A DNA stretch of 64,000 nt, taken from NCBI RefSeq assembly GCF_018350175.1, contig NC_058368.1:71550001-71614000 (forward strand). Reading direction: 5' to 3'. Numbering within the stretch: position 1 is the stretch's first letter; every line of letters starts with the position of its first letter. Positions 6,620 to 35,780 of this stretch are shown here, one piece after another. The DNA comes from Felis catus. Its lineage: Eukaryota. Position numbers and translations under genes: made by a program. A model generated the notes under the pieces. It was not told the DNA's origin, searched no databases, and saw only the letters and a list, made by a program, of their open reading frames with translations.

Positions 6620-7340
6620 TGCTGTTCACTGAAAAATCATAGGAGCCAAAGCAATTTTTAAAGTATTTTTTTTTCCAACGTTTATTTATTTTTGGGACAG
6701 AGAGAGAGAGAGAGAGAGCATGAACGGGGGAGGGGCAGAGAGAGAGGGAGACACAGAATCGGAAACAGCCTCCAGGCTCTGAGCCATCAGCCCAGAGCCT
6801 GACGCGGGCTCGAACTCACGGACCGCGAGATCGTGACCTGGCTGAAGTCGGACGCTTAACCGACTGCGCCACCCAGGCGCCCCTATTTTTAAAAAGAAAT
6901 ACAAAGTTGGGAGAATTATGCAACCTGATTTCAAGACTAACTATGAAACAGCAGTGTCGAGACAGTGTGGCATTGGTAGTTAGATATGTAGAACAGAAGA
7001 AAGTATAGTAGATCCGCATATAGATGATCAATTAATTTTTGGCAAAAGTGCTAAGGACTTTTAATGTGAAATTCTCTTAAACGGTACTCAAACAGCTGTA
7101 TGTCCATTTTGGTGAATAAAATGATCTTGTGCATTAGACACTAGATCAATGGTGGCCTGGGGGGCAAGGACCAGGATTGGAGTGTAAATGGGCAGGAAGA
7201 ACATTTTGGAGGTGTTGGAAATGTTCTCTGTGTTGATTGTGGTGGTGATTTCTCAAAATTGTCAAAAGTCACTGAATTCTATTCTTTAAATAGAATGCAA
7301 TCTTTTGTACCTAAATTATGCTTCAGTGAAATTGATTTGT
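6620..7340 (+). mobile_element. Older LINE-1 fragments (L1MD/L1ME-like), interrupted by a SINE
   Basis: agccaaagcaatttt..aaagttgggagaattatgcaacctgatttcaagact; 3'UTR piece at 7140-7340. Confidence 0.65.
6664..6883 (-). mobile_element. Young felid Can-SINE (SINEC_Fc1-like)
   Basis: gggcgcctgggtggcgcagtcggttaagcgtccgacttcagccaggtcacgatctcgcgg on the minus strand; CpGs intact. Confidence 0.95.
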
Positions 7341-11722: not shown

Positions 11723-12213
11723 AAAATTGGAATTGGTAAACCTGCACTTGTTAAAAAGGAATACTATTAGGATATGTCTGTAATAGTTCACGGCATGGAG
11801 TTGATTGATGGCCACTACTCCTTCGAGGGCCACATCTGGGAACTTTAAAAAAAATGTATAGCTACATAGTTAGAATTGCTTTATTTTTTTGTGTGGTCTT
11901 TGAAGCCACTGGGCCCTCTCTGAGTAGCACAGGGAAGAAAGAATTTTTAAGAACATGTTAGGAATAACACAGCAGTTTTATGGGTGAGAATTACTTGAAA
12001 AAGAAAGAGGTGTAATTTACTTTTCGTGAACTATTTAGTCATCATTTCTAGCAAACTAAAATTCAAACAAGATATGCATAAATCATACTGTATTCATTTT
12101 GAACTTATGTTATTTACAAATAAATGCATACCATAGAGGTGCTTTTTGACTACTCTCTGGCCATAGAAGAATTGTGTTGTCCCTCTTGTCATTTTAAACA
12201 AATGCTAACTTAC

Positions 12214-12399
12214 TTTTTATAACAAGTTTATTGAGATAGAATTCACATACCACAAGGTTCACCTAGAGTGCACAAGTCAGTGTTTTTTATTTTCATCACA
12301 GAGTTGTGCAGTAGTCACCACAGGCAATTGTAGGACATTTCCACCAATGTGGAAAGAAACCCCATACTAATTAGCGGTCATTTCTTATTTCCTTCTAGT

Positions 12400-12402
<3 letters not shown>
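12214..12402 (-). mobile_element. L1MB-like LINE-1 3' end (left half of a split element)
   Basis: tttattgagatagaattcacataccac...agaaaccccatactaattagcggtca resembles an antisense L1MB 3'UTR. Confidence 0.8.
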
Positions 12403-12778
<376 letters not shown>

Positions 12779-12780
<2 letters not shown>

Positions 12781-13930
12781 GGAATTTGATCTGTGCCTTA
12801 TTCCTAATTTTTTTTTTAAAGTTTGGTAAAAGCATGACCACTTCCAGAATTAGCTGACATAAAAATACTTAGACCAATCGATAAGTAAATTGTCATTTGA
12901 CTGGAAACATAAGTTCTTTATGAAACCCCTTAACATATATTTACTTTTGTATATAGACTGTTATCCAAGAAAAAATGATAAGTTAAGAGTTCAGATTTAT
13001 TAGATAAGACTTGACTTGTCTTTGGAAAGATGTGGGCTTTGGAAAGATGTGGAAACTCTTACTAAAGAATTTTTTTCTTACTTTTTTTCCCTAAACTTTT
13101 CTTCCTGGCTTTAACGTGGACTTACTTCTTGAGTCTCAGTCTGTCAAAATGTCCCACGTAAAGCATTGCAAAGAATAATTTTTTATTGTATCTGTTACTT
13201 AGGTACAAATTTCACTTCTTGAACTTGTGCCAGATGATTCTTCCAAAGATGTCTGTCTGTCTGTCTCTCTCTCTTTTTAATGTTTTATTTTTGAGAGAGG
13301 GAGAGAGAGTGCAGGTGGGGGAAGGGCAGAGAGAGGGGGACAGAGGATATGAAGCGGGTTCTGTGCTAACAGCAAAAAGCCCGACATAGGCTCAAACCCA
13401 TGAACTGTGAGATCATGACCTGAGCTGAAACTGGATTAAACAACTGAGCCACCCAGGTGCCCATCGAAGATGTCTCTTGTCCAAGCATGATGTCTAGTTT
13501 TTTCTGGAGCAGTCTGAAGAAGTCTTAGGGGCATCTTCTCTTTCCTGGACAACTTTAATGCATCCGTGGAATCTGCCACCCTTTCTAACTCTTCCAGACT
13601 TGGCCTTGGCAATCTCTGCCATTTGGCATTCTGCTCTGAAGTTATAAGCATGTCTCTTTTTTCAGTAGGACAACCAGAGTTTATGCATGTCTTCATTACT
13701 TTCATTCCTAATTGTTGACAGGTCCATGAAGCCCCAAGTTTCACTTTTTCCCCCTAATTTCTTGGGTCATCAAAAAATTCTTTGAGTCCTTTCCTTGACC
13801 AGTGGTGTAATTTACCCCAAAGAAAAGATGTGATATTTGGTGTATTCTTAGGCAACCTGTCGTAACCGAGGAAGTTGTGATGACCGGAAAGTCTCTGGGG
13901 TAGCTGTGGATCTTCTGCAAAGAACAGGCA
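12779..13930 (-). pseudogene. MRPL47: Processed pseudogene of mitochondrial ribosomal protein L47, interrupted by a SINE
   Basis: Minus-strand frames give [95 protein letters not shown][SINE]GRIIWHKFK..FFAMLYVGHF..FPHL..KSSLI* (stop at 13000-13002). Colinear with recalled MRPL47, no introns, several stops and frameshifts, 3'UTR, AATAAG at 12797-12802, then an A-rich tail. Confidence 0.93.
13255..13462 (-). mobile_element. Can-SINE inserted in the MRPL47 retrocopy
   Basis: TSD caaagatgtct/cgaagatgtct duplicates the RDIF codons. Confidence 0.93.
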
Positions 13931-14206
13931 AACTGCTCATCTGCTTCCTGTCTCTGTGGATTTGGTCGTTCTGGACATTCCATGTTAAATGGAATCGTAG
14001 AACATGTGGTCCTTTGTGACTGATTTCTGTTGTAGCATGTATCAGTACTGCATTCCTTTCTATTGCCGAATAATATTCCATTGTATGAAAATACCATGTT
14101 TTGTTTATCTGTGTACTGGTTGATGGACATTGGGTTATTTGGCTATTCAGAACAATGCTGCTACAAACATTCATGTACACATTTTTGTGTGGATGTGAAT
14201 TCATTT
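13926..14206 (-). mobile_element. L1MB-like LINE-1 (right half of the split element), ending ~20 nt before the PCCA acceptor
   Basis: ggcaaactgctcatctgcttcctgtctctgtgga...aatgctgctacaaacattcatgtacacatttttgtgtgga continues the L1 where 12402 stops. Confidence 0.8.
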
Positions 14207-14225
14207 TATACTTCTTTTTTTCCAG

Positions 14226-14279
14226 TGTCTTTCTCGAGAAGCAGGTGGAAACATGAGCATTCAGTTTCTTGGCACAGTG
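14226..14279 (+). CDS. PCCA: Internal coding exon of propionyl-CoA carboxylase alpha chain (human exon 21 equivalent), phase 0/0, 54 nt
   Basis: Acceptor cttctttttttccag| and donor GTG|gtaagtat. Translates [18 protein letters not shown], matching recalled human PCCA ...[30 protein letters not shown]... Confidence 0.96.
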
Positions 14280-14997
14280 GTAAGTATGAAAGAACTATTA
14301 CTTTGTATAATCATTTAATTTACAGAGAAACAAAAGCATTCAAATAGCTTTAGCCCATGTATTTGAACTTGGCTTCATCATGGTTTTATTTTACTATTAA
14401 ATGAGGTATCTTTGTATAAGAAAATGCATTCTTTAATGTGTTCATCACGTTTCCGTGATAGAATAGTTTTAGCTATTTCTTTTTAGAGAGAAAAGGTGTT
14501 TTTTTAATTATTATTTGAACTTTGTTGAGTATTTCAAGTGCTTTTTTTCTACTGAAGATTTTCTCTCTGTTTTTATTATAGAAATAAGAACATATTATTT
14601 AAGATGCTTTTAAAAATAGTGACCATGGCTTTTTTCTCTTCAGTTTTCCTTCTAGCTTTCTCTATCAGGTCCTTTTAAGTACACATTTCTAAGGGAACTG
14701 AGACATAATTTTGGATCTTGATTTTTTTCACTTAAGATCCTATTAATCATTTTCCATATTGCTAGAAAATATCAACATCATTTTACTGGAGCTGTGTTTA
14801 ACATTCTGATGAGTAGATGTGACATATTTTCTTATCCATGAATCCCAATTGTTAGGTATTTAAGTTACTCCTCGTTTTTGCCATTATGAATGGTGTTCTA
14901 ATGAACAACTTAATGGGTTTTGCTTTTTTGACATTTTGAATTATTTTCAAGCATGTTCAGAAATGTATGAAATATATCTCATTCTAAATAAAATCAT

Positions 14998-15206
14998 GGC
15001 GCGCCCGTGTGGCTCAGTTGGAAAAGCATCTGACTTTGGCTCAGGTCATGATCTCATGGTTTGTGAGTTTGAGCTCCACATTGGGCTCTGTGTTGTCCGT
15101 GCAGAGCTTGCTTTGGATTCTCTCTTCCTCTCTGTCTCTCTCTGCCCCTCTCCCACTCATACTCTCCCTCTCTCTCAAAAATAAATAAGCATTAAAAAAA
15201 ATTTAA
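14998..15206 (+). mobile_element. Can-SINE
   Basis: ggcgcgcccgtgtggctcagttgg head, CT tract, A tail. Confidence 0.92.
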
Positions 15207-26071: not shown

Positions 26072-26102
<31 letters not shown>

Positions 26103-26272
26103 CTTTTCTTTTCTTTTCTTTTCTTTTCTTTTCTTTTCTTTTCTTTTCTTTTCTTTTCTCTTTTTTCTTTTCTCTCTTTTCTTTTCTTTTCTTTTCTTTT
26201 CTTTTCTTTTCTTTTCTTTTCTTTTCTTTTCTTTTCTTTTCTTTTCTTTTCTTTTCCTTTTCTTCTTTTTTC
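26071..26272 (+). repeat. (TTTTC)n pentanucleotide microsatellite
   Basis: Visible, about 200 nt. Confidence 0.97.
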
Positions 26273-26349
26273 TATACAGAAAGCGAGATGGCATGTTCAG
26301 AAGCTGTGCTCTGTGATGATAGTAGAGAAAACAAATGGTGTAAAATAAA

Positions 26350-28291: not shown

Positions 28292-28382
<91 letters not shown>

Positions 28383-29658: not shown

Positions 29659-29868
29659 ATTTTTTTTTTCAACATTTATTTTTTATTTTTGGGACAGAGA
29701 GAGACAGAGCATGAACGGGGGAGGGGCAGAGAGAGAGGGAGACACAGAATCGGAAACAAGCTCCAGGCCATCAGCCCAGAGCCCGACACGGGGCTCGAAC
29801 TCACGGACCTTGAGATGGTGACCTGGCTGAAGTCGGACGCTCAACCGACTGCGCCACCCAGGCGCCCC
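29659..29868 (-). mobile_element. Young felid Can-SINE (SINEC_Fc1-like)
   Basis: Perfect 17-bp TSD tttagtggcatttttaa; CpG-rich. Confidence 0.96.
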
Positions 29869-33235: not shown

Positions 33236-33245
33236 TTTTTTCTAT

Positions 33246-33316
<71 letters not shown>

Positions 33317-33509
33317 TTTTGAGATAGAGCAAGCGCGAGGGAGCACAAACAGGGGAGGGGCAGAGGGAGAGGGAGACATAATCCCAAAGCAGACCCCACA
33401 CTGTCAGAACAGAGACCGATGAGGCACTTGAACCCACAAACTGTGAGATCATGACCTGAACCGAAACCAAGAGTCGGACACTTAACCGACTGAGCCCCAG
33501 AGGCACCTC
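33236..33509 (-). mobile_element. Can-SINE with (TTTA)n tail at 33243-33318
   Basis: TSD acagaatcacttct/acagaatcgcttct. Confidence 0.94.
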
Positions 33510-34859: not shown

Positions 34860-35780
34860 TTTTTAAACAAAGTTTTGTTGAAGGGGGCCTGGCTGGCTCA
34901 GTCGGTGAGCGTGCAACTCTCAATCTCGGGGTTGTGAGTTTGAGCCCAATGGTGGGGGTAGAGTTTACTTAATAAAAAAAGTTTTATTGAAATGTAATTC
35001 ACATTCCACACAAGTCACCCATTTAAAGCGTACAGTTCAGTGGTTTTTCGTCTGTTCACAGGGCTGTGCATCCTCTAGTCCGTTTGAGAGCATTTTCATC
35101 ACCCCAAAAAGAAGCTCTTTCCCCATTAGCAGTTAACCCCCATTCTCCTTCAGCCCTGCCAGCCCCTGGCAGCCACTAATCTTCCTATTTGTGTATGTTT
35201 GCTTATTCTGGACGTTGCATATAAACAAAACATATAGTATGTGATCTTTTGTGAGTGGCTTCTTTCACTTGGCATCAAGTTTTCAGAGGGTTCATCTCTG
35301 TTGTACCATCAGTAGTTCATTCGCTTTTTGCCGAATAATTTTCCAGTGGACGGATACACTACAGTTTATCCGTTCCTCAGGATGGATGTTGTGTTGTTTC
35401 TTTTTAGCTCCTATAAATAATGCTGCTGTGAACATTCCTGTTTTTGTGTGGATATATGTCTTCATTTTTCTTGAGTGTGTATCTACAAGAGAGGTTTCTG
35501 AGTCATATGGCAACTCTATGTTTAACTTTTTGAGGAATTGCCAGGATGTTTTCCAAAGCACCTGCACCATCTTATATTCCCACCAGCAATATGTGAGTCA
35601 TTTATTTTCCCCACATCCTTGCCAGCATGTCATTATCTTTTTGTTATTGAAGTGTAATTGACATACAGCATTGTTAGTTTCAGGTACTCATTATTTGTAC
35701 GCACTGTGACATGATCACCACAATAGGTCTAGTTCATATCCGATGTCTGTCTTTATTTCTAGACACCTAGCGGGTGTAAA
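34860..35780 (-). mobile_element. L1MB-like LINE-1 3' end, with a short carnivore L1 piece at about 35640-35735
   Basis: cattttcatcaccccaaaaagaa..atggcaactctatgtttaactttttgaggaattgcc. Confidence 0.88.
34883..34978 (+). mobile_element. Short old Can-SINE
   Basis: TSD aaagttttgttgaa/aaagttttattgaa. Confidence 0.88.

Follow-up and report, generated by a model that had tools for sequence, protein, structure and literature searches.

An ancient and inert MRPL47 retrocopy probably lies antisense in an intron of PCCA in the cat

How a broken version of the MRPL47 (uL29m) reading frame came to lie antisense to PCCA, when it arrived and whether it does anything there are the questions raised by a 64,000-nt window of cat DNA, the whole stretch that was analysed. 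The reading argued for here, and held to be very probably correct, is of an ancient, inert L1-type retrocopy of MRPL47 within a PCCA intron, inserted on the carnivore stem or earlier and interrupted later by a SINE.

Identity and extent of the MRPL47 copy

A broken but nearly complete copy of MRPL47 lies on the minus strand, from about 13934 to 12780. With its internal stop read as X, the frame at 13472-13936 matches uL29m/MRPL47 chains in the PDB (E 5e-34), and the piece beyond the SINE matches the same chains (E 1e-11). All seven PDB matches listed for the first frame are MRPL47; the Pfam MRP-L47 match (E 4e-5) lies below the curated cut-off of that family. The cat MRPL47 protein XP_006944298.1 (P0020) was taken as the reference parent and used as a tblastn query against the whole window, where residues 41-175 align to 13855-13466 (E 7e-33) and residues 173-224 to 13253-13104 (E 9e-14), the remaining nine rows all having E > 1 and leaving no second MRPL47 copy in the window. 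These matches, with N-terminal shuffles for the first piece and a PDB match, a frameshift-aware alignment and the C-terminus for the second, delimit coding remnants of residues ~5-175 at 13467-13934 and of residues ~173-252 at 13000-13254, both on the minus strand.

Removal of 13255-13475, a check proposed in an earlier note on this DNA, rejoins the frame exactly, and a frameshift-aware alignment of the remainder runs colinearly over cat MRPL47 residues 41-246, where 136 of the 196 aligned codons are the same. That note had described an antisense, nearly full-length MRPL47-like sequence running from about codon 8 to a C-terminal KSSLI. The near-full-length extent stands, as does the C-terminus, which ends at a stop at 13000-13002, while the 5' end may instead lie at codon 4-5; its boundary is uncertain, from about 13925 to 13937, and overlaps the flanking repeat. 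For the N-terminal 25 codons, the match to 8 of 14 orthologues (colugo best) was reached in no more than 3 of 300 shuffles, and significance was not reached with cat, meerkat or wolf MRPL47 (300 shuffles). From residue 28 to residue 41 the copy has lost a net 29 nt (by arithmetic from the alignments). This gap was considered as the fossil of an isoform, and decay was preferred, as the gap does not keep the frame and the three isoforms with a shorter second exon (P0025, P0032 and P0048) resume near residues 53-56, unlike the copy.

The structure is no assembly artefact, since 14 genome-sized runs from 8 studies contain 0.93-0.94 of the sampled words. RNA runs contain 0.41-0.61 of them, which may reflect DNA or intronic RNA, and small word shares in two further RNA runs (0.13 and 0.10) were left out. 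A search of proteins by word index, with the fragment that carries the frameshifts, yielded 0 of 435 candidates.

Processed origin and decay

Exon junctions were inferred not from the DNA of the parent but from proteins whose sequences run on into an intron or change to another isoform, 19 of which were chosen from 65 fetched. Sixteen of the 19 depart from cat MRPL47 at residues 34, 84, 104-106, 137, 180 or 212, and the other three (P0003, P0010 and P0012) break at other residues. The first junction falls in the deleted stretch of the copy, so five count, and over these the copy spans 15, 14, 15, 15 and 15 nt, where 15 nt would be expected without introns. The intronless state from which the earlier note had argued for retroposition is thereby borne out, and the colinearity over five inferred junctions supports a processed origin for the MRPL47 copy.

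Past the stop, the copy continues into a putative MRPL47 3'UTR of 220 nt (12780-12999, minus strand), in which the hexamer at 12802-12797 is one mismatch away from a poly(A) signal and is one of five hits from 12 hexamers scanned; a 3'UTR with a decayed poly(A) signal is plausible. There follows, 220 nt beyond the stop, a purine-only GAAA/GGAA array of about 375 nt (12403-12779, minus strand; 12405-12780 by TRF), with no C and a single T on the minus strand of 12430-12779. The array most likely grew out of the poly(A) tail of the retrocopy, an origin made likely by carnivore SINEs, whose A-rich tails regularly grow into microsatellites, AAAG included (PMC1634856). As the earlier note had observed, no target-site duplication of the retrocopy, a hallmark of L1 insertion, is found between its two ends (best exact match, 6 nt); the array has overwritten the 3' junction, where the loss of a duplication looks the same as its absence. 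Of the pattern matches in two metagenome scans for exons of the parent or for an orthologous locus, none was confirmed (0 of 596 in one, 0 of 133 in the other).

The coding remnant is disabled many times over. Stops fall at residues 76, 186, 218, 237 and 238 of the frameshift-aware alignment, the first being the TAG at 13754-13756, at the position of W76, that had been reported before. The frameshifts reported with it are now placed near 13711, 13673, 13659, 13552 and 13529 (five within residues 41-246), and frame-breaking indels in the copy total about seven. Near residue 246 the frame is shifted by a tandem duplication at 13020-13052 with a period of 17, its two 16-mers (13020-13035 and 13037-13052) being identical, as had also been described. 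Among sites invariant in 14 full-length orthologues 34 of 139 have changed, and among variable sites 15 of 57 show a new state (Fisher p 0.86); since the two kinds of site have changed equally often, the decay looks neutral. Compared with the carnivore majority, the copy differs at 56 of 196 sites and eight functional carnivore orthologues at 1-6, and a minimal count gives 66 replacement changes over 472 sites (~14%; 0.155 corrected). Judged by its sequence, the copy is a dead processed pseudogene with no sign of function, having neither the intact frame nor the purifying selection by which a functional retrogene is recognised.

A stop-free frame of 105 codons at 13436-13753 (minus strand) was considered as a gene and rejected as the product of compensating frameshifts. 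An 89-aa product of this frame is present as a gene call in one assembly (P0001).

Nested insertions and the age of the copy

The copy and its tail stand between two parts of an old interspersed repeat, both on the minus strand, with the 3' part at 12210-12402 and the 5' part at 13925-14205 (ends approximate). Self-comparison of the window identifies an old dispersed repeat, which we take to be an L1M-type 3' end. The 3' part is identical to 34965-35157 at 129 of 187 columns (score 106; best of 100 shuffles, 38), and for the 5' part an alignment of 13944-14239 to 35181-35490 gives 203 of 263 columns (score 142; best of 100 shuffles, 52). The flanks are 23 nt apart in the uninterrupted copy at 34965-35490 and 1541 nt apart here, and because they are colinear with that one copy, the retrocopy and its tail have split an older repeat. 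About 10 nt are common to the 5' part of the repeat and the 5' end of the retrocopy, and aligning the junctions globally to the uninterrupted copy did not fix exact breakpoints. Further, the remnant at 14100-14225 reaches to about 20 nt from the PCCA acceptor AG (its last aligned columns are gappy), and the branch-point region of the PCCA exon may be repeat-derived.

Within the copy, a Can-SINE-type element at 13255-13466 (minus strand) is inserted at codons 172-175. It is bounded by an exact 9-bp target duplication (13246-13254 and 13467-13475), and since this repeat consists of MRPL47-derived sequence, the SINE was the last to insert. The order of old repeat, then retrocopy, then SINE, which the earlier note had read from the nesting, is thus supported by the uninterrupted repeat paralogue together with the duplication around the SINE. 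The element has the anatomy of a Can-SINE (high copy number, a tRNA-type head, a CT-rich middle, an A-rich tail and short direct repeats), and blastn finds it 33 more times in the window. Against 15 of these copies its identity averages 0.787, near the low end of the range of 0.784-0.847, so it is not young. Neither of the 7-mers diagnostic of subfamilies I and II in PMC4084570 occurs exactly in the element, one-mismatch hits falling at unrelated positions, and it is assigned to no subfamily.

In a sister copy, ARAGORN recognises the head as a tRNA; the tRNA-Gln call at 15003-15088, which overlaps a SINE copy hit at 15039-15198, is most likely the tRNA-derived head of a SINE, and Rfam has no matches in the window. 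Two further SINE copies (29675-29867 and 6685-6882) are 95% identical, far above other pairs, and belong either to a younger subfamily or to a case of conversion.

The age of the copy can be approached through the 44 private residues that it holds and all 14 orthologues lack. Two of 50 screened proteins have many of these in common with it, the raccoon-dog protein CAD7681019.1 (P0033; 9 of 23 covered) and P0009 (6 of 17 covered), and the other 48 have at most two. Over residues 113-185 the counts are 5 of 17 for P0033 and 6 of 17 for P0009, where independent decay expects 0.38 and 0.47 (0 of 20000 simulations). In a tree of 27 rows and 74 columns the window copy groups with P0033 and P0009 (support 99/95), other long-branch rows staying outside the group; the end branch of the window copy is itself long (0.17), and the shifted C-terminus of P0033 matches two other frames of the window. 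Neither protein has an insert at residues 172-175, so both lack the SINE, which most likely arrived later, on this lineage only.

At five of six alignable carnivore-typical sites the copy has the non-carnivore state (sites 7, 14, 15, 45 and 138; carnivore at 139), with sites 7, 14 and 15 depending on an ungapped alignment of the fast-evolving transit peptide. All eight carnivores differ from the copy at site 45, and there the outgroups agree with it in four of four cases. As carnivore-specific parental residues are missing, the template mRNA would predate crown Carnivora. If neutral sites change at about 2.2e-9 per site and year, the divergence of 0.155 corresponds to roughly 70 million years. 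The crown Carnivora split is placed at 45-60 million years (PMC4084570). The shared canid residues and the pre-carnivoran states together point to an insertion that most likely predates the cat-dog split, with felid and canid copies descending, we infer, from one event.

A protein of 66 aa (P0056), which has residues 131 and 161 of the window copy plus a similar shifted tail, was tried as an older orthologue and stays a weak lead (2 of 13 shared sites, no tree support). Four diverged MRPL47-like proteins (P0049, P0050, P0047 and P0054; gray whale, narwhal, a slow loris 'like' protein and one more) share at most one private residue with the copy and look like independent retrocopies.

A younger, secondary origin would place the felid and canid copies at different loci, both drawn from an earlier MRPL47 pseudogene that was transcribed or duplicated. 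Re-copying of pseudogenes occurs, and the scans for the orthologous locus yielded no contig; this history is nonetheless unlikely, as it requires an extra, unseen source copy, the window has no second copy and the long end branch of the window copy fits an old insertion. A duplicate made at the DNA level, an unprocessed pseudogene, would be in keeping with the absent target-site duplication, and is opposed by five junctions without introns and by the A-rich array behind the 3' end, while a chance or endogenous retrovirus (ERV) match is opposed by E-values down to 5e-34 to MRPL47 alone; both are scarcely credible.

Under the favoured history of an ancient L1-type retrocopy, a spliced and polyadenylated MRPL47 mRNA would have been reverse-transcribed, with LINE-1 proteins most likely acting on it in trans, and inserted antisense to PCCA into the older repeat remnant in the intron. 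The shared canid copy and the pre-carnivoran residues suggest that this took place on the carnivore stem or before it. The 5'UTR and first codons would have been lost at insertion, with no promoter and with neutral decay to follow. The SINE would then have entered the copy on this lineage only, given its target duplication and the SINE-free relatives, and the poly(A) tail would have grown into the GAAA/GGAA array, maybe erasing the target duplication of the retrocopy. Today the copy would be inert intronic sequence.

The host intron and known systems

The host exon is an internal coding exon of PCCA of 54 nt (14226-14279, plus strand), with a PDB match to residues 614-637 of the 728 of human PCCA, an AG at 14224-14225 and a GT at 14280; it is presumably exon 21 in human numbering. 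As the exon is internal, the copy lies antisense within a PCCA intron, its 5' end ~295 nt upstream of the exon by measurement, close to the 300 bp first estimated. On the PCCA strand an acceptor-like AG occurs at 12821 after a pyrimidine tract. Cryptic splice sites in the copy were considered and dismissed, the density of acceptor-like sites being at background (3.8 per kb vs 3.9 for the window), with a sole extra donor-like site at 13315.

A regulatory role could take the form of antisense pairing with MRPL47 mRNA, or of the 375-nt pyrimidine tract serving as a decoy 3' splice site. It can draw on the place of the copy in a transcribed intron so near an exon, on the AG behind the tract and on reports of splicing altered by intronic retroelements in dogs (PMC13756887), but the background density of acceptor-like sites, with only the donor-like site at 13315 in addition, the ~14% of replacement sites that differ from the parent, and a copy broken by the SINE and indels with no constraint seen make it very unlikely. 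It is likewise highly improbable that the tract and the AG at 12821, ~1.4 kb before the exon, tune PCCA splicing in a repeat-length-dependent manner, as a decoy acceptor or through a rare poison exon. Long simple-repeat arrays in PCCA introns (12405-12780, 26079-26273, 28292-28382 and 33243-33319) are possible length-polymorphic markers.

As it stands, the copy is one more ordinary processed pseudogene, of a kind that numbers in the thousands per mammalian genome, and matters little. It does record three nested insertions in datable order, preserves residues of a pre-carnivoran MRPL47 allele and is a possible presence/absence marker near the root of Carnivora, and it exposes a raccoon-dog 'unnamed protein' and the 89-aa gene call as pseudogene debris; it would be of interest to specialists only if an effect on PCCA splicing were shown. 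In the literature on MRPL47 or mitochondrial ribosomal protein pseudogenes and on PCCA exon 21, no title or abstract opening among those listed concerns this locus, and the copy may already be annotated; what is new here is the age of the insertion, most likely before the cat-dog split. The main text of RCPedia, which covers 44 species, contains neither 'cat' nor 'Felis' (PMC11387616).

Intragenic retrocopies are a recognised class (PMC4558860), translation genes are typical parents, and great apes have ~8,000 retrocopies, the load in Carnivora being intermediate (bioRxiv 10.64898/2026.06.26.734816). The parent belongs to the same class as in the survey of Zhang and Gerstein (2003), whose title gives more than 100 mitochondrial ribosomal protein pseudogenes for human, the genome surveyed there (PMID 12706105, in PMC1669708). 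CAD7681019.1, annotated as 'unnamed protein product', and P0009 have private residues 131, 136, 138, 161 and 168 and a shifted C-terminal reading in common with the copy and, unlike it, have no insert at the SINE site; the former lacks residues ~186-212 and was predicted as a gene from a decayed copy, under a name without MRPL47. The SINE resembles feliform CanSINEs as described in PMC4084570 and PMC1634856 in its tRNA-type head, CT-rich middle, A-rich tail as a microsatellite and short direct repeats, and differs in having neither exact subfamily-diagnostic 7-mer. Compared with the L1 retrocopies of mammalian mRNAs described in PMC13756887 and bioRxiv 10.64898/2026.06.26.734816, the copy differs in no longer showing a target-site duplication and in having a GAAA/GGAA array for a tail, and it is alike in being intronless, with an A-rich 3' end, no parental promoter and a neutrally decayed frame.
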